Source: Synergistaceae bacterium
GTDB lineage: Bacteria; Synergistota; Synergistia; Synergistales; Aminobacteriaceae
Length of the DNA: 19,757 bases
Assembly: GCA_031276855.1 (NCBI GenBank)
Contig: JAISMH010000015.1
Coordinates: 1-19,757, forward strand
Direction: 5' to 3'
The first letter of the stretch is position 1; each line of letters opens with the position of its first letter. The notes beneath the pieces were generated by a model, which saw only the letters and a program-made list of their open reading frames with translations, had not been told where the DNA came from and searched no databases. Both the position numbers and the translations under genes were made by a program. Below are positions 1,489-16,995 of the stretch, piece by piece.

Positions 1489-1619
1489 TGCGGGGTTGGC
1501 GGGATATTTTCCGGGCCGGGCGCTTTAGTTTGGCGCGCGGGTGACCGACAAAGAGGATAGCAGCGGTGAAAGCCGCTCGGGAAACGGCCTCAAGGAATGG
1601 GGTTTGCAATTTTCGCGGA

Positions 1620-1637
1620 GCGATAAAAACTTATCGC
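1620..1637 (+). promoter_or_regulatory. Inverted repeat GCGATAA-N4-TTATCGC abutting the flgE SD (GGGAGGG). The half-site resembles a sigma-28 -10 element (GCCGATAA).
   Basis: The 7-bp arms are exact reverse complements. The repeat ends 3 nt before the SD. Confidence 0.4.
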
Positions 1638-1655
1638 GGGAGGGATTCATATAAA

Positions 1656-3764
1656 ATGTTGAGATCGCTTATGACGGCGGTGACGGGCGTTCGGTCGCAT
1701 CAGACGATGCTGGACGTGACGGGAAACAACATCGCGAACGTCAACACCACGGGGTTCAAAAAAGACGCCACGATCTTTCAGGATCTTCTGTATCAGACGT
1801 CTCAGGGCGCCACGGGGCCGGGAGACGCGAGGGGCGGCGTCAACCCCGCCCAGGTCGGGTTGGGCGTGAAGGTCGGGGCCATCGAGACCATCCACTCGCA
1901 GGGCGGCGCCCAGTACACGGGCAACAAGTCGGACATGATGATCGAAGGGGAGGGCTATTTCGTCTTCCGCAACGGAATCAGCCGAATCTACAGCCGCGCG
2001 GGCAACTTCACGCTGGACGCCGACAAGAAGCTGGTGCACTCCGGGACCGGTTACGTGGTGCAGGGCTACGAGATGGTGCAGAACCCCGCGAAGGCCACGG
2101 AGTACATCAAGGCGGGCGACATCAGCGACATCGTCATCCCGATAGGCAAGGAAATGGAGGCCCGCGCGACAAGCGTCGTGGGGGTCAAGAACAACTTGGA
2201 CGCCACGAAAGACCCCTATCTGCCGATAGGCTACGCGGATATTGAGTATAGCGACGAAACCGGGCCCGCCAAGGTCAAGATCGGCGGTATTGAGTACGAC
2301 GTGAGTTTCAAGACGAATACTGCAGGCACAACCGCCGGCACAGGGTATCTGACTGTCAACTTGGCCACAGGCGGGACGCCAGTATCCATCCAGCTTAATA
2401 TGACGGGGATCAAAGATGGGAAACCTGTTTTGGGAATAGAGGGTGCTATGGGAACTCCACCCGTTGCTACTGTGACTTTGAGCGGTGGAACAACGGCCAC
2501 GGTAGCCTATAACAACGATACCGGTATTTTGAAACTGACAGATTCGACTACTGGCTCACGGACATTAGGAGCGACGCTTTGGGAAATCAACCTGAAGGAG
2601 AACATGAACTACAATGCGTCCAGCATTTCAGGTGTTGTTCCAGCCGCTCTCAACCCAGGAGGTGGGCAGACTTACAATTACAGCTTTATTACGGAGTTTA
2701 GTGAAAATGCTCTCAGCGGGTCTCCGGCGCAGCTTACAATCTGGTACTATGGAAGTTCTCCGGCAGACGCTACCAACAAAGATTTTGGAAAGCTCACAGC
2801 CCAAGTTTCGTTTAAGTCGGACGGTACATTCGATTCGGTGACACCCCTGACAGCGACTGCCGGCACAGGAACGTGGCCTACGTGGCTCACTGTTGACAGC
2901 ACCGATCCCACTAAACCAAACATGCTTCAGGTAGTCGTTTCGGAAAGCAATTCTTCCGTACTGGAGATGAAGGTCGCTAAAGATGCGACCGCTACTTCTT
3001 TCGATACGGTCAACCAGATCACGCAGGGCGGATTCGAGCAGACGAAATTGACGGTCTACGACTGCCAAGGGAACCCCTACACGATGGAAATCACGTTCAA
3101 GAAGCTGACGAAAGACCGCTGGCGGTGGGAGGCCTTCTTCCCGGAGAATCCCGAGCTTTTCAACGTGCCCCCGTCGGGGGAACTGAAGTTCGGCCCTTGC
3201 GGCAAACTCAAGTTTCCGAAGGACGGGGCGGACATCTACGTCCCCTTCTCCCTGCTCGGGACGAAGAACGAGACCATTCACCTGGACTTCAGCAACAAGT
3301 ATTTCAAGGGCGACGATTACGTCTGGGACACCGACGCCCTGGAGGGCCTGACGCAGTACGCCTCGGCCAGCACGGCGAAGGCCTACTATCAGGACGGCTA
3401 CCAGATGGGCGTCCTGAACAACTACACCGTGGGCAACGACGGAACGATCACGGGCATCTACACCAACAGCCAGACCCAGCCCATATACCGCGTGGCCCTG
3501 GCGCAGTTCGCCAACCCGATGGGCCTCGACAAGGTGGGCAGCACCATGTTCCGCGAATCGATCAACTCCGGCATGGCGCAGATCGACGCGGCGTCGGACA
3601 ACGGGTCGGGAACCATCGCCGGCGGCACGCTCGAAATGTCGAACGTGGATCTGACGGAGGAGTTCACGCGCCTCATCATCGCGCAGCGCGGCTTTCAGGC
3701 GAACACCCGGGTCGTGACGACCAGCGACCAGATTCTGGAAGAAGTCGTCAACCTGAAACGGTAA
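1656..3764 (+). CDS. flgE: Flagellar hook protein FlgE, long form (about 702 aa) with a large central insertion domain.
   Basis: N-terminus MLRSLMTAVTGVRSHQTMLDVTGNNIANVNTTGFK and C-terminus GTLEMSNVDLTEEFTRLIIAQRGFQANTRVVTTSDQILEEVVNLKR are the canonical flagellar rod/hook terminal segments. RBS GGGAGGG lies 8 nt upstream of ATG 1656. The track ORF starts at 1566, but the ATG at 1656 with an SD is preferred. Confidence 0.93.
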   Translation: MLRSLMTAVTGVRSHQTMLDVTGNNIANVNTTGFKKDATIFQDLLYQTSQGATGPGDARGGVNPAQVGLGVKVGAIETIHSQGGAQYTGNKSDMMIEGEGYFVFRNGISRIYSRAGNFTLDADKKLVHSGTGYVVQGYEMVQNPAKATEYIKAGDISDIVIPIGKEMEARATSVVGVKNNLDATKDPYLPIGYADIEYSDETGPAKVKIGGIEYDVSFKTNTAGTTAGTGYLTVNLATGGTPVSIQLNMTGIKDGKPVLGIEGAMGTPPVATVTLSGGTTATVAYNNDTGILKLTDSTTGSRTLGATLWEINLKENMNYNASSISGVVPAALNPGGGQTYNYSFITEFSENALSGSPAQLTIWYYGSSPADATNKDFGKLTAQVSFKSDGTFDSVTPLTATAGTGTWPTWLTVDSTDPTKPNMLQVVVSESNSSVLEMKVAKDATATSFDTVNQITQGGFEQTKLTVYDCQGNPYTMEITFKKLTKDRWRWEAFFPENPELFNVPPSGELKFGPCGKLKFPKDGADIYVPFSLLGTKNETIHLDFSNKYFKGDDYVWDTDALEGLTQYASASTAKAYYQDGYQMGVLNNYTVGNDGTITGIYTNSQTQPIYRVALAQFANPMGLDKVGSTMFRESINSGMAQIDAASDNGSGTIAGGTLEMSNVDLTEEFTRLIIAQRGFQANTRVVTTSDQILEEVVNLKR

Positions 3765-4081: not shown

Positions 4082-4918
4082 TTGGCGGGCTCGAAAATTT
4101 TGTTCGGCCAGGGGGGGACGCAGGACTTGGATTTAACCACTGTCGTCGGATTTCTTATCTGTTGGATTCTCGTTATCGGCGGAATGGCCGCCGGGGGAAA
4201 CATTGCCGCCTATTACGACTTTCCTTCCATATTGATCACCGTGGGCGGATCGATAGGGGCCGTCGTCATCTCGCACCCGAGCGACATCCTGAAAACGGTG
4301 GGGGGCGCCATCAAGAACGCCTTTTTTTCCTCGGACCCCAACCTTCTCGGCATGGTGCAGACGATCGTGAGCTTCGCCGAAAAAGCCCGCAGAGAAGGGC
4401 TTCTCGCGCTCGAGGGCGATGTCGCGGAGCTGGACGACGAGTTTTTGCGCAAATCCATCCAGCTGGTGGTGGACGGCACGGATCCCGAACTGGTGAAGGC
4501 CATTCTGGACACGGAAATAGGCATTCTGGAAGACCGGCATTCCGCGAACAAATCCGTTTTCGACGCGACCGCCGAGCTCGCCCCTGCCTACGGGATGATC
4601 GGAACCCTGATCGGCCTCATCGCCATGCTGGGGAACCTTCAGGACGTCAGCGCCCTGGGGCCCGGCATGGCCGTCGCCCTGATCACGACGATGTACGGCT
4701 CCATGATGGCCAACATGCTCTGCATCCCGGTGGCCAAGAAGCTGGCCGCCCGCTCCTCCAAGGAAATCCTCTCCATGGAGCTGATGGTGGAGGGCATTCT
4801 GGCGATCCAGGCCGGCGAAAACCCCCGCATCGTCGAGGAAAAGCTGAAGGTGTTCCTGCCTCCGAAACTGAGGCACAACCTGGAGGACGCCCAGAAAGCG
4901 GAAAGAGGAGAAAAATAG
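4082..4918 (+). CDS. motA: Flagellar motor stator protein MotA (proton channel, 4 TM).
   Basis: TM segments VVGFLICWILVIGGMAAGG and the C-terminal plug/TM3-4 region YGMIGTLIGLIAMLGNL…ALITTMYGSMMANMLCIPVAKKL are typical of MotA/PomA/ExbB. The track start TTG 4082 has a weak SD. An alternative in-frame TTG at 4127 (LDLTTVV) is preceded by a G-run at 4111-4117, so the true start is uncertain. Confidence 0.88.
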   Translation: MAGSKILFGQGGTQDLDLTTVVGFLICWILVIGGMAAGGNIAAYYDFPSILITVGGSIGAVVISHPSDILKTVGGAIKNAFFSSDPNLLGMVQTIVSFAEKARREGLLALEGDVAELDDEFLRKSIQLVVDGTDPELVKAILDTEIGILEDRHSANKSVFDATAELAPAYGMIGTLIGLIAMLGNLQDVSALGPGMAVALITTMYGSMMANMLCIPVAKKLAARSSKEILSMELMVEGILAIQAGENPRIVEEKLKVFLPPKLRHNLEDAQKAERGEK

Positions 4919-4921
4919 AAC

Positions 4922-5647
4922 ATGGCGCGCAAGAAAAAAGCTCCTCCGCCGGGGCCCAGCGCCCCTCTTTACATGGCGACCTACGGGGACATGGTGACGC
5001 TCGTCCTGTGCTTCTTCGTCCTGCTGTTCGCGATGTCCTCGGTCGACGCCCAGAAGTTCCAGAAGGCCATTCTCTCCCTGCGCGGCTCTCTCGGCATCCT
5101 GAGGGGCGGTTCAACCGTGGAGGAGACCGTGGATCCGAACACCAGCGGCGAAGACGGAAGGGCCGCGGGCGCGGCGCCCCGCCATGTGATGAACACGCAG
5201 CACGTGGCCTACACGATCAACAGCTACCTGCGCAGCGAAGGGCTGGACAAAGCCATACAGGTGACCATCAACCAGAGGGGGGTCGCCGTCTCCATATCGG
5301 ATCAGTTCCTTTTCGACAGCGGCAGCGCCGTGCTGAAAACCGAAGGCAAGCGGGTCTTGTACAAAATAGCGACGCTGGTACGCGAGGAAGTCCCGGCCGT
5401 TTCCGTCGAGGGACACACGGACGCCGTTCCCCTGCGGGGGGGCATTTACCGGGACAACTGGGGACTCTCCTCGGCGAGGGCCGCCGTGGTGGCCTCCTAT
5501 CTGGCGGAGGAGGGAGGCGTGACGCCCCAGAAGCTCCAGGCGGTGGGATACTCGTCCTACCAACCGACGGTGCCCAACGACACGCCGGAGCATCGGGCTC
5601 TGAACCGCCGGGTGGACCTCGTTTTTCTGTCGCAGTATCCGAAATGA
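4922..5647 (+). CDS. motB: Flagellar motor protein MotB (OmpA-like peptidoglycan-binding C-terminal domain).
   Basis: N-terminal TM helix (MATYGDMVTLVLCFFVLLFAMS) with the conserved Asp in DMVTLL. OmpA-like C-terminal motif EGHTDAVP…NWGLSSARAAVVASYL…NRRVDLVF. GAGGAG SD 11 nt upstream. Confidence 0.9.
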   Translation: MARKKKAPPPGPSAPLYMATYGDMVTLVLCFFVLLFAMSSVDAQKFQKAILSLRGSLGILRGGSTVEETVDPNTSGEDGRAAGAAPRHVMNTQHVAYTINSYLRSEGLDKAIQVTINQRGVAVSISDQFLFDSGSAVLKTEGKRVLYKIATLVREEVPAVSVEGHTDAVPLRGGIYRDNWGLSSARAAVVASYLAEEGGVTPQKLQAVGYSSYQPTVPNDTPEHRALNRRVDLVFLSQYPK

Positions 5648-5678: not shown

Positions 5679-6125
5679 ATGAAAAGAATTTTGATTTTTG
5701 CCGTCGTGGGTTTGGTCATGTTCGCCGTCGGCTTCGGAGGAGGGCTCTTCATGGGCCGTGCGATGGCGCCCGACAGCTCCTCGTCGGGCCGGACGAAGAG
5801 CGTGGAGGCGCCGGGGCCGCTCGTCGCGGTGGGGGAGTTTACCAGCAATCTGGCCGGGTCGGGCAAGCACGTCATCAGCTTCACCGTTTCGCTGGAGACC
5901 CTGAACCCGAAGGCCGCGGACATCGTGGGCAACGTCTGGCTTCCGAGGATAAAAAACGAGATCCTGCTGATCGTGAAGGACAAAGTTTACGAAGATTTGA
6001 CGAGCGCCGAGGGAACGCTGCAGTTTGCCGAGGAGATCAAGCGGGCCGTCAACTCGCAGCTCCCGGAAGTCAACGGCGAGGCCCCCGTGGTGCGCGTCCT
6101 CTTCGAGGCGTTTGTGCTGCAGTGA
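5679..6125 (+). CDS. fliL: Flagellar basal-body-associated protein FliL.
   Basis: Single N-terminal TM helix followed by …LVAVGEFTSNL…HVISFTVSLETLNPKAADIV…IKNEILLIV…, which matches the FliL family pattern (…xLxxFxVNL…RYLxxxIxLE…). Its position between motB and fliM is conserved. Confidence 0.8.
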   Translation: MKRILIFAVVGLVMFAVGFGGGLFMGRAMAPDSSSSGRTKSVEAPGPLVAVGEFTSNLAGSGKHVISFTVSLETLNPKAADIVGNVWLPRIKNEILLIVKDKVYEDLTSAEGTLQFAEEIKRAVNSQLPEVNGEAPVVRVLFEAFVLQ

Positions 6126-6146
6126 GTTTACGCCGACAATAAAAAA

Positions 6147-6178
6147 ATTGATAATAAAAGATTGATAATAAAAAGATT
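6147..6178. repeat. AT-rich tandem direct repeat ATTGATAATAAAAG, two copies then a partial one, in the fliL-fliM spacer. The minus strand reads TATCAATCTTTTA (IHF-like WATCAANNNNTTR).
   Basis: Read directly from 6147-6160 and 6161-6175. Confidence 0.85.
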
Positions 6179-6225: not shown

Positions 6226-7230
6226 TTGGCCCCCGATGTGTTGTCCCAGAGCGAAATAGATTCTTTGTTGAGCGCGCTGACGAGCGGGTCGATGGATCTC
6301 GACTCGATGACCCAGCAAAGCGAGTACGAGGTCAAGCTCTACGACTTCAAGCGCCCCGACAAATTCAGCAAGGACCAGCTGAGAGCCATTCAAATGATCC
6401 ACGAGGCCTTCGGGCGCCAGCTCTCGACCGTGATGTCCTCTCTCATCCGGTCCATGGTCGCGGCCGAGGTCGCCTCCGTGGACCAGCTGGCCTACGAGGA
6501 GTTCGTGAACTCCCTGGTTCAGCCCACGGTCATCGGAACGCTGGAAATGCATCCCTTCAACGGCAACGCCCTGATCGAGATCAATCCGAACCTGGTTTTC
6601 GCGATGATAGACCGGCTTCTGGGAGGCAAGGGGGAGTTTACCGGCAAGGCGCGGGAGCTGACGGACATCGAAAAGACGGTCATCGAGCGCGTACTGATGC
6701 GGATGCTCGAACTTCTGGAAGACAGCTGGAGTACGGTCGTGGACGTGAGGTTCCGCTTCGAGAGCATGGAGAGCAACCCCTTCTTCGTGCAGGTCTGTCC
6801 CCCGCGGGATATGGTGCTGCTGGTCATCATGAAGCTGCAGGTCGGAGAGGTGGAGGGGATGATCAGCCTCTGCATTCCCTACTTCCTGATGGAACCTATC
6901 GTGGACAAGCTCTCCTCTCAGCAGTGGTTCGTCTCGACGGGCCGCAAGGGCGACGACGGCGTCCGCGAAAATCTGCTCCATTCGCTCGACCGGGTGAAGG
7001 TTCCCATGTCCCTCGAACTGGGGCACACGGTTCTCAGCCTGGCGGACGTCTACGACCTCGAAGAGGGCGACGTGATCAAATTGGACGAGGAAATCGGCAG
7101 CGAGGTCGAGGTGCGGGTCGGAAACTATGTCCGCTTCAAGGCCAGGCCGGGAACCTTGGACGGCCGTCTGGCGGCCGAGGTGACGCGGGTCGTCAGCGGC
7201 ACGGACGAGCCTGAAGGAGGGGGAAACTGA
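6226..7230 (+). CDS. fliM: Flagellar motor switch protein FliM.
   Basis: N-terminal CheY-P-binding peptide (M)APDVLSQSEIDSLLSAL. Central CheC-like FliM domain. C-terminal SpoA/FliN-like domain (VPMSLELGHTVLSLADVYDLEEGDVIKLD). Start TTG 6226 lies 5 nt after AGGTGAG (6214-6220). The track lists GTG 6220, which sits inside that SD. Confidence 0.9.
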   Translation: MAPDVLSQSEIDSLLSALTSGSMDLDSMTQQSEYEVKLYDFKRPDKFSKDQLRAIQMIHEAFGRQLSTVMSSLIRSMVAAEVASVDQLAYEEFVNSLVQPTVIGTLEMHPFNGNALIEINPNLVFAMIDRLLGGKGEFTGKARELTDIEKTVIERVLMRMLELLEDSWSTVVDVRFRFESMESNPFFVQVCPPRDMVLLVIMKLQVGEVEGMISLCIPYFLMEPIVDKLSSQQWFVSTGRKGDDGVRENLLHSLDRVKVPMSLELGHTVLSLADVYDLEEGDVIKLDEEIGSEVEVRVGNYVRFKARPGTLDGRLAAEVTRVVSGTDEPEGGGN

Positions 7231-8342
7231 TGGATAATCTGTTGAGCCAGGATGAAATAAACTCTCTTCTCGGCGGAGGCGACGCCCCTTCAGGCTCCGC
7301 GGGGCTTTCTATGGAAGACACGCAGATTCTGAACGAGGTCGCGAGCATTTTCTCGAACGCGGAGAACAACGTGTTCAGCATGCTGGCGGGCAAGGAGGTC
7401 AACTCCAAAGGCGGGGAGACCGAGGTTCTTTCTCAGGCGGAGTTCAAGGCGAAACTTGGCGCCGAGACGCCTTTCGTTTTCAGGGCGACCTTCGACGGCT
7501 TCGACGACGTGCCTTTGATTTTTGCCGTCGGGCGCCGCGGCGCGCTGGCGCTGGCCGATTTGATGATGGGCGGAGAGGGGAAGGACGTCCCCGAGGAGGC
7601 CAGCGAGCTTTACCTGAACGCGGCTCAGGAGGGATTGAGCCAGGTCGTGGGCTCCGCCTTCACCAGCCTGAGCGGCCTGATGGGCGGCCGCCGCCTGATG
7701 CCCGAAAACACGAAGTCCGCTTTGGAAGAGGAAGACGACTGGGCGGTATTTCCCGCCTTGGACGCCGAGGCCAGGGTGTGGGCCAGCTTCTCCGAGGTGG
7801 AAATAGAGGGGCTGGAGCCCTTCGCGATATGGGCCGCCATTCCTTTGGATTCCGTGAAAACCATGGCGGAGCTGATTCGTCAAAATATGGGAGGAGGGGA
7901 AAAGCAGCCGGAGTCCCCTTCTTTATCTTCTTCTCCGTCTCCCCAGGCGCCCCGCGCGGCTCAGGCGGCGGGCGCTTCGCCCGCTTCCGCTCCTTCGACG
8001 AGAGGCGGCCAGCGTCCCGGGCCCGTGACCGACGTGCGCCCCGCGGAGTTCACTCCCCTCTCGGCCAAGGGCCCGGCGGGGAGCGGCAGCAAGATCGACC
8101 TGATCGCGGATATTCCGGTGCGTGTCACCGTGGAACTGGGGAAGACGAGAAAAAATATCTCCGAGATCCTGGGCATGACGACGGGTTCCGTCATCGAACT
8201 GGACAAAATGGCGGGGGAGCCCGTGGACGTGCTCGTCAACGGAAAGCTGATCGCCAAGGGCGAGGTCGTCGTGATCGACGAAAACTTCGGAGTGCGCGTC
8301 ACCGAGGTCTTGGGCGCGGCTCCGAAGGCCTACGCGGTGTGA
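7230..8342 (+). CDS. fliY: Flagellar motor switch protein FliY/FliN, long form. FliM-like N-terminal peptide, middle domain, and C-terminal FliN/SpoA domain.
   Basis: N-terminus MDNLLSQDEINSLLGG (LSQxEIxxLL CheY-binding motif). C-terminus IPVRVTVELGKTRKNISEILGMTTGSVIELDKMAGEPVDVLVNGKLIAKGEVVVIDENFGVRVTEV is a canonical FliN. ATG overlaps the fliM stop (TGATG). Confidence 0.85.
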   Translation: MDNLLSQDEINSLLGGGDAPSGSAGLSMEDTQILNEVASIFSNAENNVFSMLAGKEVNSKGGETEVLSQAEFKAKLGAETPFVFRATFDGFDDVPLIFAVGRRGALALADLMMGGEGKDVPEEASELYLNAAQEGLSQVVGSAFTSLSGLMGGRRLMPENTKSALEEEDDWAVFPALDAEARVWASFSEVEIEGLEPFAIWAAIPLDSVKTMAELIRQNMGGGEKQPESPSLSSSPSPQAPRAAQAAGASPASAPSTRGGQRPGPVTDVRPAEFTPLSAKGPAGSGSKIDLIADIPVRVTVELGKTRKNISEILGMTTGSVIELDKMAGEPVDVLVNGKLIAKGEVVVIDENFGVRVTEVLGAAPKAYAV

Positions 8343-8449
8343 GTTTGCCGCTTCGATTCAAAGGAGCTGCGATTCGAAAAGGGCTGCCGCGCTTCTTTGC
8401 ATACGGTAATTGTCCGCAGAAAAAGTCTTCGTCCGCCGGGAGATGCGTA

Positions 8450-8458
8450 TGATATAAT
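8450..8458 (+). promoter_or_regulatory. Extended -10 promoter candidate (TGATATAAT) inside the 315-nt fliY-cheY spacer. The -35 is poor.
   Basis: TGnTATAAT consensus match at 8450-8458, about 200 nt upstream of cheY. Confidence 0.3.
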
Positions 8459-8657: not shown

Positions 8658-9020
8658 ATGGGCAAAAAGGTTCTGATAGTGGATGACGCTGCCTTTATGC
8701 GTATGATGTTGAAGGATATTCTCCAGAAACACAGTTTCGAGATTGTGGGAGAAGCAGAAAACGGAAAGCTCGGGGTTGCGGCCTATCAGAAATACAAGCC
8801 CGACATCGTGACGATGGATATAACGATGCCGGAAATGAACGGCATCGACGCCGTAAAGGCCATCAAGACGCTGGATCCTGCCGCGAAGATCGTGATGGTC
8901 TCCGCGATGGGACAGCAGCCGATGGTCATCGAGGCCATTCAGGCGGGCGCCAACGACTTCATCGTCAAGCCCTTCCAACCGGAGCGCGTGATCGAGGCCA
9001 TTTCCAAAGTCTTGGGTTAA
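8658..9020 (+). CDS. cheY: Chemotaxis response regulator CheY (single REC domain, 120 aa).
   Basis: KVLIVDDAAFMRMML…DIVTMDITMPEMNGIDAVKAIK…KIVMVSAMGQQ…AGANDFIVKPF. All REC catalytic residues are present (DD, D-phosphoacceptor in TMDI, T/S, K). SD GCGAGGGG 7 nt upstream. Confidence 0.92.
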   Translation: MGKKVLIVDDAAFMRMMLKDILQKHSFEIVGEAENGKLGVAAYQKYKPDIVTMDITMPEMNGIDAVKAIKTLDPAAKIVMVSAMGQQPMVIEAIQAGANDFIVKPFQPERVIEAISKVLG

Positions 9021-9151
9021 AAACGGGAATTTTGGGTTAAAGCCGAAAGTTTTGGGTTGAAACCGAGGGTTCCGGGTAAAATCCAATAGTTCCGGATCGA
9101 GCCCAAAGTTTCGGGCTGAATTCGAGATTCCGGGTTGGACTGCCGAAGGGG
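9012..9151. repeat. Degenerate tandem array with a 20-bp period and 7 units (consensus about YYGGGTTRAARCCGARRGTT). It starts inside the last codons of cheY and fills the cheY-fliO spacer.
   Basis: Units at 9012, 9032, 9052, 9072, 9092, 9112 and 9132. The first three begin TTGGGTTAA, TTGGGTTAA and TTGGGTTGA, and identity decays towards fliO. Confidence 0.8.
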
Positions 9152-9197: not shown

Positions 9198-9461
9198 ATG
9201 GCTCTGGCTCTTGCGGTGATGGCTGTCATTGCGGTCGCCGCTGTTCGTTTTGTCAAAAGCGGAGCCCGCGGAGGGCGGAGCGGGGCGCGTGTCGAAGTTA
9301 TGGCATCCTTGCCTTTGGGTAAGGATGTTTTTTTCGTTCTGCGGTGCGGTCCCGAGGTTTTTGCCCTGACATCCGGGCACGCGGGGACTCATCTGATAGG
9401 CAGGTGGAAATATGAAGAATGGCTTCGATGGGAAGAAAAGGAGAAGGCTTGCGAAAGCTGA
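9198..9461 (+). CDS. fliO: Flagellar biosynthesis protein FliO (FliZ of Bacillus), short form.
   Basis: One TM helix (LALAVMAVIAVAAV) followed by RVEVMASLPLGKDVFFVLRCGPEVFALTSGHAGTHLIG. This matches the FliO core (…ERVPLGPRESLVLVEVGGRVLVLGVT…). Its position between cheY and fliP is conserved. An in-frame stop at 9156 bounds the start, and the SD is weak. Confidence 0.55.
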   Translation: MALALAVMAVIAVAAVRFVKSGARGGRSGARVEVMASLPLGKDVFFVLRCGPEVFALTSGHAGTHLIGRWKYEEWLRWEEKEKACES

Positions 9462-10245
9462 GTCATTTTTCTTCTTCTGCTTTTTGACCGGTCTCGTCCT
9501 CGCGGTCTTTTTTGCCGCTTCGCCCGCCGAAGCCGCTTTTGTCGAGGAAGCGCCGAGAATACCCATTCCGCTTCTGCAGTTGGGCGTCGTCCCGGCGGAC
9601 TCCCCGCAGGATGTCGCCGTTTCCTTGCAGATACTGGCTCTTTTGACGGTGCTGACCCTGGCCCCGGCCATTTTGCTGATGCTGACGAGCTTCACGCGGA
9701 TCGTCGTGGTGCTGGGGTTCATTCAGCGCGCGATCGGTCTCCAGCAGTCGCCGCCCCAGCAGACCATCGTCAGCCTCGCCCTCTTCCTCGCCCTCTTCAC
9801 GATGTATCCGACGTGGAACCGCATCTACGAGAACGCCCTCGCCCCCTATCTGGCGAAGGAGATCGACTCCCCGCGGGCGTGGACGGAGACGATCACGCCC
9901 CTGAGGGAGTTCATGTTCCGTTACACCCGTCAGGAGGAGCTGTCCCTGATGGTCTCCATGGCGAACCTCGAACGCCCGGAGAACCGGGAGGAGGTTCCGA
10001 CGCGGGTTCTGATCCCCGCTTTCATGCTGAGCGAGCTCAAGACCGCTTTTCAGATGGGCGTGGTGATCTACATTCCCTTCATCATCGTGGACATGATCGT
10101 GTCGAGCGTCCTTTTGGCGATGGGCATGATGATGCTGCCCCCCATGATGATTTCTCTGCCGTTCAAGATCCTGCTCTTCGTGATGGCCGACGGCTGGAAC
10201 CTCGTCGTCGTGAGCCTTCTCAAGAGCTTCACGAACGTGCCGTAA
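9412..10245 (+). CDS. fliP: Flagellar type III export apparatus protein FliP.
   Basis: Signal peptide, then the conserved LTLAPAILLMLTSFTRIVVVLGFIQRAIGLQQSPP and C-terminal YIPFIIVDMIVSSVLLAMGMMMLPP motifs. AGGTGGA SD. Overlaps the 3' end of fliO by 50 nt. Confidence 0.92.
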   Translation: MKNGFDGKKRRRLAKAESFFFFCFLTGLVLAVFFAASPAEAAFVEEAPRIPIPLLQLGVVPADSPQDVAVSLQILALLTVLTLAPAILLMLTSFTRIVVVLGFIQRAIGLQQSPPQQTIVSLALFLALFTMYPTWNRIYENALAPYLAKEIDSPRAWTETITPLREFMFRYTRQEELSLMVSMANLERPENREEVPTRVLIPAFMLSELKTAFQMGVVIYIPFIIVDMIVSSVLLAMGMMMLPPMMISLPFKILLFVMADGWNLVVVSLLKSFTNVP

Positions 10246-10257
10246 GGGGGCGGGCTC

Positions 10258-10533
10258 ATGGACATCGTTCCGATCAACATGTTCGACATCTTAAACGAGG
10301 CGGTCTGGACGATGCTCCTCGTCACCATGCCCATTCTTCTGGTGGCGATGGGCGTGGGGCTCATTATCGGCATCGTGCAGACGGCGACGTCCATTCAGGA
10401 GCAGACGCTGATCTTCATCCCGAAGATTTTGGCCGTGTTTTTGTTCATCATCCTCGTCGGGCCCTGGATGGCCGACAAGATTCTGGGCATCACTCGGGAA
10501 ATTCTGGGGCACCTCGAGAGGTTCATTCAATGA
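10258..10533 (+). CDS. fliQ: Flagellar export apparatus protein FliQ.
   Basis: 91 aa with two TM segments. LLVTMPILLVAMGVGLIIGIVQTATSIQEQTLIFIPKILAVFL is the FliQ signature. Confidence 0.9.
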   Translation: MDIVPINMFDILNEAVWTMLLVTMPILLVAMGVGLIIGIVQTATSIQEQTLIFIPKILAVFLFIILVGPWMADKILGITREILGHLERFIQ

Positions 10534-10570
10534 ATCCAGTAAATCCAATGAATCCAGTAAATCCGATGAG
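10528..10570. repeat. 18-bp tandem repeat CAATGAATCCAGTAAATC, 2.4 copies, at the fliQ stop and in the fliQ-fliR spacer.
   Basis: Copies at 10528-10545 and 10546-10563 are perfect. A partial third copy is CGATGAG. Confidence 0.9.
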
Positions 10571-10590: not shown

Positions 10591-11388
10591 TTGCAGGGGC
10601 TTGAGATTCCCGCGCAGCTTCTGGTGGTGTACTGTCTGGTGCATCTTCGGTTCGTGGGCATGATGTTCACGTTTCCCCTGTTTTTCACGACGGCGAGCCC
10701 CGTTCCCTTCCGGTTTCTTTGCGCCGTTTTCCTGACCGTGACCGCGGCGGGCACTCTGGCGGAGAGCGGGGAGGATTTCGCCGTCTCCATGGTTCTCCTC
10801 GAAAGCTGGGTGCCGCTTCTGCTGATGGCCCTGCGCGAGCTCTTCATCGGCGCGGCCCTCGGTCTCCTCGCGGCCCTGCCTCTGGTGGCGCTCCAGGTCT
10901 CGGGGGAGCAGGTGAGCATGGCGATGGGGCTCTCCATGGCCAGCGTGATGGACCCCCTGATGGACCGCCAGACCTCCATCATCGGGCAGCTTCAGTTTCT
11001 GATCGGGCTGTGGTTCTATTTCCGCTGGAACGGCCACCTTCTGCTGATTCAGGCGGTCGTGGAAAGCCTGCGCCTTCTCCCGCCGGGGAGGCTCTCCTGG
11101 ATTCCCGCGGGGGACCTGTCGTTCGGGGATTGGCTCTCGGCGGTTTTCGACCTGGCGGCGAAGATCGTCGTTCCTTTTTACTGCGCCCTCCTGCTGGCGG
11201 ATGTCGGGCTGGGGTTTCTGGCGCGGACCGTTCCCCAGATGAACATTTTCATTTTGGGCCTGCCCGTGAAAATCGCGCTGGGGTTCTTCGTCCTGGCGAT
11301 CGTTCTGCCCCTGGCCGTGGAGATCGTCTACGCGCATCTGGAGCGGTGGGTCGAGTTCGCCCTGCAAAGCTCGATGGTCTGGCGCTGA
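10591..11388 (+). CDS. fliR: Flagellar export apparatus protein FliR.
   Basis: Polytopic membrane protein. ALRELFIGAALGLLAALPLVALQVSGEQVSMAMGLSMASVMDP is typical of FliR. TTG start with GGAGG SD at 10579-10583 (7-nt spacing). Confidence 0.88.
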   Translation: MQGLEIPAQLLVVYCLVHLRFVGMMFTFPLFFTTASPVPFRFLCAVFLTVTAAGTLAESGEDFAVSMVLLESWVPLLLMALRELFIGAALGLLAALPLVALQVSGEQVSMAMGLSMASVMDPLMDRQTSIIGQLQFLIGLWFYFRWNGHLLLIQAVVESLRLLPPGRLSWIPAGDLSFGDWLSAVFDLAAKIVVPFYCALLLADVGLGFLARTVPQMNIFILGLPVKIALGFFVLAIVLPLAVEIVYAHLERWVEFALQSSMVWR

Positions 11389-11436
11389 ACGGGCCCGGCC
11401 CCCGTCAAGCGAATCCGGCAATATCGGCGTCGGCGG

Positions 11437-11500
11437 TATAAATTCGGTGGATATAAATTCGATGGCTATAAATTCGATGAATATAAATCCCGTGACTGAA
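11437..11500. repeat. 15-bp tandem repeat TATAAATTCGATGRN, 4 copies plus degenerate extras, in the fliR-flhB spacer.
   Basis: Units at 11437, 11452, 11467 and 11482. Each carries a TATAAAT box and an in-frame ATG or GTG. Confidence 0.9.
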
Positions 11501-11530
11501 TCGAGCGATATGAATTCTCGGCGGCCGTCG

Positions 11531-12631
11531 ATGAAAACAATCCCCCGTTTCGTTTTCGACATTCAATTCTTCGCCCAGGAGCGCACGGAGGCGGCGACGC
11601 CCAAGAAGCGCCAGAAGGTGCGCTCCGAGGGGAAGGTCTGCAAAAGCCGCGACCTGACCGCCGCCGTCGAAATTCTGACGGGCCTCGTGGGGCTCGTGAT
11701 GTTCGGGCCCTCGATCTTCGGCGGGCTCATCGACTATTTCCGCGAGATGATCGGGGTTCTGGGGGAGGAATCGCTTCTGCGGGCTGGCTGGTTTTACCGC
11801 CTGGAGTTCACGGCGCTCCGGGCCTACTTCGGCGCCTGGCTCCTGCCGGGGCTCCTCATCGCGGCCTTCACCACGGCCGTGACGGTCTATCAAATCGGCT
11901 GGGTCATCAGCTTCGAGCCTTTCAAATTCGACTTGAACCGCCTGAACCCCGTCTCCGGCATGAAAAAGATCATCTCCCTGCGCTCTCTCGTGGAGCTGCT
12001 GAAGGGGCTTCTGAAGGCCTCCCTCTTCGTCCTCGTCATCTATATCGCCATGCGGGACAAACTGCCCGCCGCCGTGTACGCGATGCAGCTTTCGATGGCG
12101 GCAGGGGCCCTGCTCTTCTGGAACCTGCTGTGGGACCTCTCGATGCGGCTGGCCGCGATGCTTTTGGTCATGGCGCTCGTGGACTACCTGTACCAAAAGT
12201 GGGATTATGAAAAGTCCATACGGATGAGCAAGCAGGAGGTCAAGGAAGAGTTCAAGCAGATGGAGGGCGACCCTCAGATCAAAAGCAAGATCCGCCAGAA
12301 ACAGCGGGAGCTCGCGAAGAAGAGAATGATGTCCTCCGTGCCCAAGGCGGACGTGGTCATCACGAACCCCACCACCCTGGCGATCGCTTTGGTGTACGAC
12401 CGCAAAATCATGGCCGCGCCTCAAATCACGGCGAAGGGCAAGGGCTTCGTCGCCCGGAAGATCCGCGAGCTGGCCGCGGCGCACGGGGTCCCCGTCATCG
12501 AAAACAAACCCCTAGCCTGGGCGCTTTACGAGTCCGCCGATGTGGGGGACGAGGTGCCGGAGAACCTCTACCGCGGCGTCGCCGAAATTCTGGCGATGGT
12601 CTACAAACTCGCCGGAAAACAGCCGTCTTAG
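11531..12631 (+). CDS. flhB: Flagellar export switch protein FlhB.
   Basis: N-terminus MKTIPRFVFDIQFFAQERTEAATPKKRQKVRSEGKVCKSRDL parallels Bacillus FlhB (MKLRVDLQFFAGEKTEKATPKKR…). The C-terminal autocleavage region contains NPTTLAIALVY, which carries the NPTH-like motif. The track ORF extends in-frame upstream to GTG 11447 through the 15-bp repeats. ATG 11531 is preferred by homology. Confidence 0.9.
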   Translation: MKTIPRFVFDIQFFAQERTEAATPKKRQKVRSEGKVCKSRDLTAAVEILTGLVGLVMFGPSIFGGLIDYFREMIGVLGEESLLRAGWFYRLEFTALRAYFGAWLLPGLLIAAFTTAVTVYQIGWVISFEPFKFDLNRLNPVSGMKKIISLRSLVELLKGLLKASLFVLVIYIAMRDKLPAAVYAMQLSMAAGALLFWNLLWDLSMRLAAMLLVMALVDYLYQKWDYEKSIRMSKQEVKEEFKQMEGDPQIKSKIRQKQRELAKKRMMSSVPKADVVITNPTTLAIALVYDRKIMAAPQITAKGKGFVARKIRELAAAHGVPVIENKPLAWALYESADVGDEVPENLYRGVAEILAMVYKLAGKQPS

Positions 12632-12752: not shown

Positions 12753-14015
12753 ATGCGGAGAGCGGGAAGAAAAACGGATTCATGGGAGTTCCTGAAATTA
12801 AGGAAGCTCTTGAATTTCCTGAGGTTCATTAAATTTGCGGCGTGTTTTCTCTTCCTGTTTTCCCATCCCGCTCTCCCCGCTTTTTGCGCCGAGGCCGACA
12901 CGTCCCTTTGGACGTGGGACGTGCTGGTCATTCCCCCCGACGAGGGCTGGCAGAGCGAGAAAGGTCTTTCCGTTCAAAATGCGCTCCAATGGCACGCGGC
13001 CGAAATCTCGGAGAGCGGAGCCGGCATTCGGGGTCATGACCTCCGATTCGTCTTTCTCCCGCCCCTGACGGAGGACTCCGCGCGGAGTTTCGCCCTTCCC
13101 AACGACCCCCGCGCCGTCGCCGTCATGAGCTTCGCGTCGAACCCCGTGGACAGGGCGCTGGCGGATAGAGAACTGGCCGGCCGCTCCGCGGGAAGCGGGC
13201 TTCCCCTCTTCCTGGCCGGCGGAGAAAACGTTTCCCTCTTCGAGGGGAGCCGTCCTGTCCCGCGGCTTTTCGCCCTCGACCTTTTTCGGGACTACCGCTG
13301 TCAGGCTTTCGCGGATTACGCGTCGAAAATCGCGGCAAAAGACGCCCGGGTGGGCGTCATGGGCGCGCGGTTCACGCTCAACGAGGAACGCGAGGCCAAA
13401 ATTTGCTTCGACCTCTTCTCGGAAGCGGGTTTCATGCCCATGCCCTACTGGGTGGACGCCTCCGTGAGGGACTCCTTCTCCATGGTCGAACAGGAGATCG
13501 TCGACTACAGCAACGGCATTCTCATCAGCTACATCGGGAGCATGGGCACGAAGGAAATCTGGCGCGGCATCATGGGACACCAGTCCCCTTACCGGATCTG
13601 GTACGGCGGGGTTCCCGACAAATCCTTCCTTTCTTATAGAGGCATGATCTTCGCCGATCAGAACATGTATCTGGACGCGCTGGGGGGCTTTGAGCGGCTG
13701 AAGCGCGACCTGTGGTCGTCGCGCGCCCTGTCCGCCCCGGACAAGGTCGCGGCGGGGCGGGCCAACGCCCTCGCGTTCTGGCTGATTCAGGCCCTGAAGG
13801 CCCTTCCGGGCGATTTGGACAGCATCGACAGGAACGCGCTGCTTTCCCTTCTGGCCGAAGCGCGGGACATTCCCTTCGGCTCCCAGACGCTGAATATCGA
13901 CCGGGACACCCACCGCCCCGGAACGCGGCGGGTCTTCATCATGGAAATGCGCAACAGGAGCTTTTTTGTCCTGGACACCCTCGGCGTGCGGGGACTGAAA
14001 CACCGCGGCGATTGA
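12753..14015 (+). CDS. Secreted periplasmic-binding-protein-like protein (type I PBP fold, LivJ-like), Sec signal peptide. No adjacent ABC permease or ATPase.
   Basis: N-terminal hydrophobic signal sequence (FLRFIKFAACFLFLFSHPALPAFCAEA). Alternating beta-alpha pattern: VLVIPPDEGWQ…, VGVMGARFTLNEE…, ILISYIGSMG…. GGGGAGAGGG SD 6 nt upstream. The family assignment is by pattern only. Confidence 0.55.
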   Translation: MRRAGRKTDSWEFLKLRKLLNFLRFIKFAACFLFLFSHPALPAFCAEADTSLWTWDVLVIPPDEGWQSEKGLSVQNALQWHAAEISESGAGIRGHDLRFVFLPPLTEDSARSFALPNDPRAVAVMSFASNPVDRALADRELAGRSAGSGLPLFLAGGENVSLFEGSRPVPRLFALDLFRDYRCQAFADYASKIAAKDARVGVMGARFTLNEEREAKICFDLFSEAGFMPMPYWVDASVRDSFSMVEQEIVDYSNGILISYIGSMGTKEIWRGIMGHQSPYRIWYGGVPDKSFLSYRGMIFADQNMYLDALGGFERLKRDLWSSRALSAPDKVAAGRANALAFWLIQALKALPGDLDSIDRNALLSLLAEARDIPFGSQTLNIDRDTHRPGTRRVFIMEMRNRSFFVLDTLGVRGLKHRGD

Positions 14016-14164: not shown

Positions 14165-14929
14165 ATGGAAGCAGGCGATATGACTACAGGCGTTGCGGAA
14201 CGGCTGGCGGAGTGCCTGAAAAAGAAGAAAACCGACTGCGTGACGCTGGGGAGCCTGCCCGTTTCGCTGAAAAGGCTGCTGACGGGGAAACCCAGGCCCG
14301 CCGCCGCCGAGCTCGAAAAATGCGCCACCCCGCACCTCGGGGAAAACCTGATGCTGAAACGGAGCGGGCGGTACGTTTACCTCGCGCTCCGGCAGCCCGA
14401 CGAGTCGCTGCTGCTCGGCATCCTTCGGAAGAGGGCCGGGAAGAGCCCCAGCGCGAACAACACCCCCTTCAGGAAAGAAGAATTCATCGCCGTCCTGAAC
14501 CGCCTGATCGAGCAGGGAAAAATCCTTGTCAGGCTCAACAAAGACTGCAAACCCCTCCTTTTCCCGATTCCGGCCCGGAGCCCGGAGGCCCCGGCCGGAG
14601 CGGAAAAAGCGGGCCTGAACGCAAATCTGAATATAAATCAGAATGCAAATCAGGAAGCGGGGCGGGAGAGCGTTTCCGCGGAGCGGTTCGAGAGCGCGTA
14701 CCGGGAGCTGGAAGGGGGGAAGTTCTTTGTCCGCGTCTGCGACCTCCGCCGCCGTCTGGGCTGGGGGCGGAAGGAGTTCGACGGGACGGCGGCCGCGCTT
14801 CGGGACGCGGGGAAAATCCAGCTGCAGTCCGGGGACACCGCCTACTTCAGCGAGCGGGACATCGCGGACAGCTTCATCGACGAGAACGGCTTTCGGATGC
14901 TCACCCTGATGTGGCTCGGGCGGACGTAG
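14165..14929 (+). CDS. Hypothetical protein (254 aa) with two globular halves separated by an Ala/Asn-rich linker. Each half resembles a winged helix.
   Basis: GGAGG SD 9 nt upstream of ATG 14165. GC3-rich codon usage typical of this genome. No recognisable catalytic motif. Linker …PARSPEAPAGAEKAGLNANLNINQNANQEAG…. Confidence 0.55.
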   Translation: MEAGDMTTGVAERLAECLKKKKTDCVTLGSLPVSLKRLLTGKPRPAAAELEKCATPHLGENLMLKRSGRYVYLALRQPDESLLLGILRKRAGKSPSANNTPFRKEEFIAVLNRLIEQGKILVRLNKDCKPLLFPIPARSPEAPAGAEKAGLNANLNINQNANQEAGRESVSAERFESAYRELEGGKFFVRVCDLRRRLGWGRKEFDGTAAALRDAGKIQLQSGDTAYFSERDIADSFIDENGFRMLTLMWLGRT

Positions 14930-14937
14930 CCCGGAGG

Positions 14938-14979
14938 AACGGGGCGCGTTCCACGCCGCCCCGTTAATTTGAAATTTTG
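14938..14979 (+). terminator. Candidate intrinsic terminator or attenuator between the 254-aa gene and the NTPase gene.
   Basis: 9-bp GC-rich stem AACGGGGCG/CGCCCCGTT (14938-14946 pairs with 14957-14965) with a 10-nt loop, followed by AATTTGAAATTTTG. The T-tract is interrupted. Confidence 0.35.
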
Positions 14980-15006
14980 AACCTGAGTGTTTTTCTGGAG
15001 ATGAAA

Positions 15007-16995
15007 ATGAGCGCTTTCGGGATTCGGGAACAGATTTTTCAGAACAACCCCTTTTTTTCCGGCATCGCCTCCGACCCTTGGGACAACACGGACCCCGACG
15101 TCCCCTCCCTGAACGAGGAAGCCTGCCGGCACCTCTGCGGGCTGGTTCTCGCCAAGAGCCGGAACCCCTGCGCGGCCTCGGCCGGGCTGATTCTGGGCGA
15201 GGCGGGGATGGGCAAGACGCACCTCCTGAAGCGCCTTCTGCGCTACGTTCGGAAGGAAGGCATCGCGGCGCTCTTCGCGTCCATCACTCCCCTGCCGGAC
15301 CCCGGCAGTCCCATGCGGCACCTCCTGCGGGAGATCGCCCTCGACCTGTCGGGCAGAGGGATCTACGAAGACAGGCGGACGAAGCCCCTGACGCGGCGGA
15401 GCGTCACCCAGTTCGACTATTTGCTCGACAAGGCCGCGGCGGCCTGCCGGAAGGACGAGGAGGACTCGAAACCGCGGACGGGCATTCTCCGCTTCCTGAG
15501 CGACCGCTTCCTGAGCGACCGCTTTCCAGGCGCCCGCCTTCCGGGCGCCCGCTTGCGGAGCGGCGCCGCGCTTCTTCGGGAGCGGTGCCGGGGTATTCAC
15601 CCCCGCCTGCTCGGGGCCGTGTTCGGCCGCTCCGACCCCCGCCAGCGGGAGGCCGTTCTGGAGTGGCTCGAAAACGGCGCCCGGGCGGAAGGGGAAGAGG
15701 AGGCGCGGAGGGTTCTCGTGTCCCTGGGAATGCTTCTGGAATACTGCGGAATGTCGCTGATCGTCTGCTTCGACCAGCTGGACGGGATGAGGGACGACGC
15801 CCTGATCACGGCGTTCGGGGACACCGTCCATTTTCTGGTGAACGACGTGAAGGGGATGCTGCCTCTGGCGTTCGTTCGGATGAACACGTGGAGCGACCGT
15901 TTTTCACGGCTCGATCCGGCCGTGACGCAGCGGCTTTCCGGGAACGAGATGTTCCTCTACGCCTGCACGCTGGAGCAGGCGCGGGAGCTCATCCGGGTCC
16001 GGCTCGAATCCCGCTTCAAGGGCGATACCGAGGAAAAGTTTCAATGGCTGATGGAGCGGCTGGAGGGGAAGCTGAAAGCGGGGTATTCTCCGCGCGCCGT
16101 GATCGAACTGGCCAACCGCGAAATCGTGCGCGAAAGAGAACCCGAAAAGGAGCCCCTTGAAAAAGACCCAATCGAAAGGGAACTCGCCGAATTGGCATCC
16201 CTCGGCGGAGAACCGCGCGGCGGCGAGCCGCGCAGCGAAGAACCCGCCGGAGAACCCTTTAATGTCTCGAATTCCTTCGATGTCTCGAATGCCTTTAATA
16301 TCCCGAATGCCTTCGATACCCTCGATTTAGTCGAGCCTTCCGATACCTCTTCGGCCGGCCCTTCTTTGACTGGCTCTTCTTTAACTGAAGACGGGCCGGG
16401 GGCGATTCTGGAAGTCTTCGCGGACGAATACCGCAAAGCGCGCAAAAAGGCGGACGCCGGCGTCAGGCGTTCCCCCGATCCCGAAAGCCTTGTCCGCGCC
16501 CTCGAAACCTGCCTGCTCTCCCGCGCGGACTTCACAGACGTCCGCCGCACGGAGGACGGCTACATCGCCCTGACGGCGCGGCGCGAGGGAGGCGGGGCCT
16601 GCGCCTTCATCGTCAGCACGCAAGAAAACCACCGCGCGGTCCAGACGGCGCTGGCGCGCGGGGTCTCCTTCCTGTGGGATCACCCCGACGGGGAATGCTT
16701 CTGCGTCGCCGCCGGGCGCCAGGATTTCAGACTCCGCAAAAATTGGCCGAGCGTGCAGAAAGAGCTGCAAAAATTTCTGGAGGCAAAGGGCACCGTCTTC
16801 TATTTGAACCGCAGACAGGCCGCGGCCTGGTACGCTCTGGCGGCCCTCCGCCTCGAGGTGGACAGGGGAAACATCCGGCTGCCCGCTCCCGACGGAAAAC
16901 AGCGCGCGGCCCAAATAGAGGACCTCGCGCTGTTCCTGAGACAGAGTTCTGAAAAAGACCTGCCGGAGTGGTGGGATGCGAAAAATGGATTGTGA
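15007..16995 (+). CDS. Large P-loop NTPase (AAA_16/STAND-like) with an uncharacterised C-terminal domain of about 250 aa and internal in-frame tandem repeats.
   Basis: Walker A LILGEAGMGKTHLLKRLL and Walker B-like LIVCFDQLDGMRDD. GGAG SD 6 nt upstream of ATG 15007. The track start is TTG 14977. Confidence 0.7.
   Translation: MSAFGIREQIFQNNPFFSGIASDPWDNTDPDVPSLNEEACRHLCGLVLAKSRNPCAASAGLILGEAGMGKTHLLKRLLRYVRKEGIAALFASITPLPDPGSPMRHLLREIALDLSGRGIYEDRRTKPLTRRSVTQFDYLLDKAAAACRKDEEDSKPRTGILRFLSDRFLSDRFPGARLPGARLRSGAALLRERCRGIHPRLLGAVFGRSDPRQREAVLEWLENGARAEGEEEARRVLVSLGMLLEYCGMSLIVCFDQLDGMRDDALITAFGDTVHFLVNDVKGMLPLAFVRMNTWSDRFSRLDPAVTQRLSGNEMFLYACTLEQARELIRVRLESRFKGDTEEKFQWLMERLEGKLKAGYSPRAVIELANREIVREREPEKEPLEKDPIERELAELASLGGEPRGGEPRSEEPAGEPFNVSNSFDVSNAFNIPNAFDTLDLVEPSDTSSAGPSLTGSSLTEDGPGAILEVFADEYRKARKKADAGVRRSPDPESLVRALETCLLSRADFTDVRRTEDGYIALTARREGGGACAFIVSTQENHRAVQTALARGVSFLWDHPDGECFCVAAGRQDFRLRKNWPSVQKELQKFLEAKGTVFYLNRRQAAAWYALAALRLEVDRGNIRLPAPDGKQRAAQIEDLALFLRQSSEKDLPEWWDAKNGL
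15490..15555 (+). repeat. In-frame 15-bp tandem duplications inside the NTPase gene (CGCTTCCTGAGCGAC x2 perfect, then CCRGGCGCCCGCYTK x2), encoding FLSDR-FLSDR-FPGARL-PGARL.
   Basis: Read directly. Confidence 0.9.
16201..16320 (+). repeat. In-frame block of 15-bp periodic repeats in the NTPase gene, encoding GEPRG-GEPRS-EEPAG and FNVSN-SFDVSN-AFNIPN-AFD.
   Basis: Read directly. Low-complexity linker between the NTPase domain and the C-terminal domain. Confidence 0.8.

Follow-up and report, generated by a model that had tools for sequence, protein, structure and literature searches.

Why does a short tandem repeat with a start codon in each of its units sit directly upstream of flhB, and does it do anything there? 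We analyzed a whole contig of 19,757 bp (hereafter, the window), on which the original prediction had placed 15-bp repeats, each with a TATAAAT box and an in-frame start codon, in the spacer between fliR and flhB, and had suggested that they could either generate N-terminally extended FlhB isoforms or act as an array of -10-like elements. The nearest genomes are termite-gut-type Synergistaceae MAGs, and next to these Fretibacterium. For comparison, we used 72 loci encoding FlhB relatives, and, in addition, the contigs that encode the four closest proteins (L073 to L076; FlhB identity of 84–88%).

The window carries a Firmicutes-style fla/che operon on the + strand, with flgE (1566–3764), motA (4082–4918), motB (4922–5647), fliL (5679–6125), fliM (about 6226–7230), fliY (7230–8342), cheY (8658–9020), a probable fliO (9198–9461), fliP (9412–10245), fliQ (10258–10533), fliR (10591–11388; Pfam Bac_export_1, TTG start at 10591), and flhB (11531–12631). 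The 366-aa product of flhB is the flagellar export-gate switch protein, with a Pfam Bac_export_2 match (E 5.7e-119) and matches to FlhB in the PDB. The upstream neighbor fliR ends at 11388, which leaves a spacer of 142 nt before the flhB start at 11531. A terminator scan found no terminator-like site between the fliR stop and flhB, and read-through transcription is thus the default for flhB. The strongest terminator-like hairpin of the window (a 12-bp stem then a T-run, 9302–9329) is inside the probable fliO ORF and is kept in L073, L075, and L002; it could reflect a coding constraint or an intra-operon attenuator. On the other side of flhB, flhA is not the next gene on the contig. Directly 3' of flhB is a 420-aa ORF (12753–14015) with a strong Shine-Dalgarno sequence and no Pfam match in the window, and its 411-aa counterpart in L073 is recorded with HipA_C.

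The core tandem array (11437–11496, + strand) consists of four 15-bp units with the consensus TATAAATTCGATGGA: TATAAATTCGGTGGA (11437–11451), TATAAATTCGATGGC (11452–11466), TATAAATTCGATGAA (11467–11481), and TATAAATCCCGTGAC (11482–11496). Its GC content is 33%, on a contig of roughly 60%. TRF reported 11437–11488 with a period of 15, 3.5 copies, 89% matches, and a score of 83, and a second repeat search gave the same register with spacings of 15, 15, and 15 (family D1). The 15-bp tandem array is far above chance: 30 dinucleotide-preserving shuffles of the window yielded a mean of 0.1 arrays per window with a score of at least 50. Downstream, a decayed tail (11497–11527, + strand) holds a 67%-identical copy at 11501–11518 as well as an ATG at 11510. 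The predicted repeats are therefore present, with their units at the positions given above, and they are tied to in-frame start codons, as had been noted. Ahead of ATG 11531, five such codons lie in the flhB frame on the + strand between 11447 and 11512 (GTG 11447, ATG 11462, ATG 11477, GTG 11492, and ATG 11510), and the distances between successive starts from 11447 to 11531 are 15, 15, 15, 18, and 21 nt. The prediction that an open frame extends through the array is correct in that the frame is open from GTG 11447 (the closest in-frame stop 5' of the array is at 11267). This openness is unremarkable, since the unit is stop-free in two of its three frames and GC-rich DNA has long open frames. 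Read in the fliR frame, the array leads through YKFDGYKFDEYKSRD to a stop and has no start codon, so that translation in this frame would require read-through of the fliR stop.

The sequence of the units resembles that of the flhB start itself. The translation-initiation region of flhB (TCGATGAAAACAATCCCC, 11528–11545, + strand) shares 78% identity with the reference copy at 11474–11491 (TCGATGAATATAAATCCC), equal to that of the other units (family D2), and would be the final copy in the series, the one still in use. In local alignment of the start region with the array, the observed score was reached by 9 of 5000 composition-preserving shuffles, for a similarity that spans 18 nt and came from seven comparisons tried. 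The start region of L076 (ATGAAAAAAATTCCC) aligns with the array too, more weakly. There is also a match of the unit to the L074 spacer, which shares AATTCGAT with it; judging by this match, whose score was reached by 946 of 5000 shuffles, an origin of the unit from ancestral spacer sequence is possible. Going by these sequence similarities, the most plausible reading is that the flhB initiation region was amplified in tandem by a slippage-type process. Each unit would then have an ATG or GTG because the array is built of copies of the start-codon region.

At the orthologous site, no array is present in any fetched Synergistaceae locus, including L073 to L076. In most Synergistaceae, fliR and flhB adjoin or overlap. 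In L073 to L076, about 10 to 110 nt separate the fliR stop from the conserved IPRF coding region, and the spacer sequences are unrelated to that of the window. The absence from relatives suggests that the array is young and lineage-specific, and it argues against a conserved regulatory role. Exact-protein look-ups with FliQ, the 394-aa FlhB ORF, and the 366-aa FlhB found no strain variants of the contig. Altogether, we consider it probable that the array is a young, locus-specific minisatellite that arose by tandem duplication of the flhB start segment.

If the upstream codons are copies of a start, it matters which start is used. Two annotations (NCBI and JGI) call the 366-aa protein from ATG 11531 and FlhB structures agree, which bears out the earlier choice of this codon as the homology-supported start. 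Alignments to solved FlhB structures begin at residue 43 of the 394-aa ORF, equivalent to residue 15 of the 366-aa protein, and no homologue or solved FlhB aligns 5' of residue 39 of that ORF. The accompanying statement that FlhB N-terminal length is normally tightly conserved proved partly true at best. The stretch preceding the QFFA motif is most often 8 residues long in the 112 annotated homologues and varies from 1 to 32, with a few longer outliers; a start at 11447 would place 38 residues there.

It is highly unlikely that the array exists to produce FlhB isoforms with extended N-termini through initiation at several of its in-frame ATG/GTG codons. The idea draws on the frame that is open from 11447 with all five upstream starts in the flhB frame, on the retention of this frame through the decayed tail (steps of 18 and 21 nt), on the annotated FlhB N-terminus of L073, which is 19 aa longer and has AGGAG before it, and on the differences in annotated N-terminal length between homologues. 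Of the features of a coding extension, an open frame with an in-frame start is indeed present; a ribosome-binding site, typical codons, and conservation are missing. The Shine-Dalgarno energies at the five upstream starts are -1.6 to -6.4 kcal/mol vs. -9 to -14 kcal/mol for most operon genes. GC3 of the extension is 0.50 compared to 0.80 in genes, and rare ATA/AAT codons (each about 0.5–0.6% of gene codons) make up about a third of the extension (9 of 28 codons). Compared with real 28-codon windows, the codon score of the extension ranks at the 4th percentile, and it is not above that of an out-of-frame reading. All of the differences between units are non-synonymous, and the extension peptide has a counterpart in no homologue. 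The suggestion of extended isoforms thus finds no support in Shine-Dalgarno sequence, codon usage, or homology. Retention of the frame through the decayed tail might be a sign that the upstream starts are under some selection, although it is expected by chance in 1 of 9 cases. The presumed working start itself has a weak Shine-Dalgarno sequence (anti-SD duplex energy of -7.5 kcal/mol at ATG 11531), so minor initiation at the relic codons is possible and may occasionally yield a minor extended FlhB. N-terminally tagged FlhB works in Salmonella, so such minor products would probably be harmless.

Some of the long annotated N-termini in relatives may have a similar background. In L073 (2659–2740), the annotated FlhB is 385 aa, and 12 bp are duplicated in frame within the part that encodes the N-terminus (IPPV-IPRF); in L074 (4436–4500), the annotated FlhB is 379 aa and there is a 12-bp stutter with an ATG. 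From these sequences, it appears that the long N-termini of L073 and L074 may be partly over-called, and FlhB entries of 379–390 aa in several relatives may be over-extended for the same reason, i.e., repeat debris.

The second suggested function was in transcription. Here the array would let flhB be transcribed from a start of its own inside the operon, with promoter elements that are either TATAAAT sigma-70 -10 boxes or sigma-28 elements (TAAA-N15-ttCGATga), and we judge this to be very improbable. TATAAAT is similar to TATAAT, but it has no TG extension, no -35 above 3/6, and is missing the register with the terminal T. Scans of 11000–12000 and of the whole window for sigma-70 promoters, defined as -35 and -10 hexamers spaced 16–18 nt apart or an extended -10 (TGnTATAAT), found no site in the array, and the 11000–12000 region yielded no promoter-like site at all. 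For sigma-28 (FliA/SigD), we used the consensus TAAA-N15-GCCGATAA. The period of 15 puts TAAA and CGAT at sigma-28 spacing in two registers (2 matches vs. 0.34 expected); however, these two TAAA-N17-CGAT matches are a single repeated sequence counted twice. The best match to the full consensus has 3 mismatches, and the window has 10 such matches vs. 8.9 by chance. In addition, the candidate promoter element is missing in all relatives. The proposal of an array of -10-like elements is therefore not borne out, and nothing points to a promoter role any more than to a genuine FlhB N-terminal extension. By contrast, the 315-nt fliY-cheY spacer has an extended -10-like TGATATAAT box (8450–8458) that is kept in L074 and L075 and is probably an internal promoter serving the export-gate genes and cheY. 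For lack of a -35, this box escapes the consensus scan.

At the RNA level, the array region had no Rfam family at gathering score and none at E <= 1, and the predicted fold of the fliR-flhB spacer is slightly less stable than that of shuffles (z = +1.17). We rejected a structured RNA or riboswitch on these two grounds. In one predicted pairing, 11428–11437 pairs with 11524–11533, including the AUG, in a fold that is no better than those of shuffles. The same weak folding would suit another role, in which the AU-rich array is kept to aid flhB translation after loss of coupling to fliR, either as an unstructured standby/S1-binding platform or through a start-codon ladder, which would catch ribosomes released at the fliR stop. 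Such an aid would make sense in that flhB in this clade has no good Shine-Dalgarno sequence, the junction arrays are AT-rich throughout, and an ORF in the fliQ-fliR array (below) resembles MIRU-type coupling as described in PMC12548453. Still, we regard either variant as highly improbable. The array has no conservation, and the first in-frame start sits 59 nt after the fliR stop. With the array in place, opening of the ATG 11531 region is predicted to cost 11.35 kcal/mol, and with four or three units deleted in silico it costs 10.70 or 8.88 kcal/mol, respectively. Because deletion does not make opening more costly, we rejected an AU-rich leader that opens the start site. A bolder version has the start- and stop-codon stutters at the gene junctions of this termite-gut Synergistaceae lineage as a selected, copy-number-tunable setting of cistron translation, in which the flhB ladder would capture fliR ribosomes, give graded FlhB isoforms, and retune export-gate stoichiometry through array length; we think that this has little chance of being correct.

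The case for a minisatellite does not stand on the flhB junction alone, as each operon spacer of at least 57 nt carries its own array, with a unit that differs by spacer. Intergenic DNA makes up 8.5% of the operon and holds four of its five arrays (P = 2.4e-4). All of the sibling arrays are on the + strand. The fliL-fliM spacer array (6135–6178) has 2.8 copies of a 14/15-bp unit, AATAAAAAGATTGAT, in a spacer that is only about 25 nt in L075. The fliY-cheY spacer array (8350–8387) has 2.3 copies of a 16-bp unit just 3' of the fliY stop. In the cheY-fliO spacer (9006–9127), there are about seven progressively decayed 20-bp copies beginning with AAAGTYTTGGGTTAA, which corresponds to the end of cheY, its final four codons together with TAA (K V L G stop). 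L073 and L074 each have this cheY-end sequence once, and L075 has about two copies. The fliQ-fliR spacer array (10525–10569) has 2.3 copies of an 18-bp unit, CAATGAATCCAGTAAATC, and includes the fliQ stop (TGA 10531–10533). It repeats a sequence beginning with CAATGAATCC, whose homologue is single-copy in L073; in L075, the fliQ-end sequence has been amplified independently, to four copies of a 24-bp unit. In the cheY and fliQ arrays, the duplicated sequence is thus the 3' end of the preceding gene together with its stop codon. We also observed that a small GTTTT/AAAAC hairpin is possible in each unit of the cheY array, and that the fliQ-fliR array contains a 24-codon ORF (MNPVNPMNPVNPMSPVWRPNLAGA followed by the stop), which starts at ATG 10530, where an ATGA overlaps the fliQ stop, and terminates at TGA 10602–10604, just beyond the fliR TTG at 10591, as a MIRU-like bridge of the two cistrons.

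Arrays with an ATG per unit at the 5' end of a gene recur elsewhere in the clade. These include flhB of L074 (AAAAATATGGGC/AAAAATATGAAG), L001 at 4144–4174 (AAAAAAATGGAAGACG), L002 at 4206–4257 (four copies of AGCATGAGACCG), and the fliP N-terminus of L001. The FliP N-termini themselves include in-frame tandem repeats in L002 (822–872; LNQN LNQH LNPN LTQN) and in-frame GMDEE repeats in L001 (917–987); FliP of the window is without N-terminal repeats of this type. Counting arrays with a score of at least 50 and a period of at least 9, the window has 4.05 arrays per 10 kb, compared to 1.8 for the termite-type clade, 0.8 for Fretibacterium/rumen relatives, and 0.9 for outgroups.

The window also has arrays in coding sequence, at 14617–14653, 15489–15562, and 16203–16317, as in-frame repeats of 12, 15, 15, and 18 bp. 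They sit in two ORFs with no or weak Pfam matches (14212–14967 and the AAA-ATPase-like 14977–16995), and the first of them (14617–14653) encodes LNANLNINQNANQ. An exact 12-mer, TGAATATAAATC, is common to the flhB array (11478–11489) and this coding array (14628–14639). The TGAAT-NN-AAATC motif, to which the fliQ-fliR unit is similar as well, is confined to those arrays within the window, and its occurrence in other loci is sporadic. Array periods are 12, 15, and 18 in coding sequence, and in intergenic DNA also 14, 16, and 20, a difference that fits a general mutation process filtered by selection. Taken as a whole, the sequences point to a raised rate of short tandem duplication in this lineage, with selection leaving survivors at junctions and in tolerant linkers.

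Returning to flhB, a young minisatellite would have formed as follows. Slipped-strand or unequal tandem duplication would have acted on a segment with the flhB start and first codons, with an ancestral sequence of roughly TCG ATG AAA AMA ATY CCC. The downstream copy, with ATG 11531, would remain the working start, and the upstream copies would now be decaying intercistronic RNA between fliR and flhB, with their ATG/GTG codons as start-codon relics. Each duplicated length (15, 15, 15, 18, and 21 nt) is a multiple of three, which keeps these relics in frame; presumably, only in-frame duplications of the start avoid an out-of-frame upstream ORF that overlaps the real one. The region would be transcribed by operon read-through, and FlhB would be made mainly from ATG 11531. 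The array would have no dedicated function and would instead be a symptom of a lineage-wide tendency toward tandem duplication of 11–24 bp, with survivors mostly in the places where selection leaves them, namely tolerant coding linkers and the junctions between genes. We infer slippage as the mechanism, neutrality, and use of 11531 from the repeat anatomy, the similarity to the start region, the absence in relatives, the single-copy precursors of sibling arrays, and the lack of functional signals; the array is most likely neutral.

For annotation, this means that the flhB start should be set at 11531, and that open, ATG-studded sequence 5' of genes in this clade calls for caution as repeat debris rather than coding sequence. 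The clade-wide junction stutters are a minor curiosity. Even so, a single flagellar operon with at least five independent junction arrays, together with precursors and parallel amplifications in sister species, makes the clade a natural series for following the origin of tandem duplications, their selective filtering, and the tolerance of an operon for lost tight translational coupling. The arrays would be useful as strain-typing markers if copy number varies.

How does the array compare to known repeat systems? By analogy, its closest named counterpart is the MIRU (Supply et al. 1997), and the passages on MIRUs in PMC3184786 and PMC12548453 describe tandem, intercistronic, co-transcribed elements at start codons, with ORFs in phase with the flanking genes. 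According to the same passages, in-phase insertion of a MIRU hardly disturbs expression and preserves coupling, and the elements form a dispersed, apparently mobile family of 40–100 bp with about 40–50 copies per genome. The likeness is in tandem repeats that sit in operon spacers at start codons and in phase with the gene. With respect to the MIRU stop-to-start ORF, the flhB array is in frame and has its first start 59 nt past the fliR stop, and the fliQ-fliR array bridges its two cistrons. The difference is that the arrays of the window are built from local sequence, vary per junction, and show no dispersed copies in the sequences scanned.

This comparison bears on whether the AT-rich block is itself a small mobile MIRU-/MITE-like insertion at the flhB start, which we find extremely unlikely. 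Read from the sequence, a 7-nt direct repeat, TCGGCGG (11430–11436 and 11518–11524, + strand), flanks the block on both sides of 11437–11517, and MIRUs do insert at operon start codons with in-phase ORFs in the accounts given in PMC12548453 and PMC3184786. However, CGG-rich 7-mers are frequent in this DNA, the block has no terminal inverted repeats and no further copies within the window, and the units resemble the local start region, which argues against a mobile insertion. A metagenome scan with two adjacent units (TATAAATTCGRTGNNTATAAAT) returned 13 matches, all single chance matches on unrelated contigs of 20–46% GC. We thus rejected the array as a member of a dispersed family, with chance matches only in the metagenome scan and none elsewhere in the window.

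Phase-variable contingency loci offer a second comparison, as a repeat tract at a flagellar export-apparatus gene of a host-associated bacterium. Phase-variable homopolymer tracts are known from Campylobacter flhA and Helicobacter fliP, where units of 1 nt in coding sequence switch genes on and off by frameshift. The flhB array differs in its unit of 15 nt and its position 5' of the start, and because a 15-nt unit upstream of coding sequence cannot switch frame, it is not a contingency locus. We rejected this class on the grounds that the unit is a multiple of three, that it is upstream of the coding sequence, and that no promoter was found.

The array most resembles VNTRs or minisatellites of the type used in MLVA, for which copy-number polymorphism is the defining practical property. 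Like these, it has head-to-tail units of 10–25 bp with a locus-specific sequence, neighboring units that are highly identical with decay toward one end, an intergenic position, and no counterpart in related species. Both its constant period, which is beyond chance, and its local derivation together with its absence in relatives are as in this class. It differs in that the repeated segment includes a start codon, and in that it is one of several arrays in a single operon.
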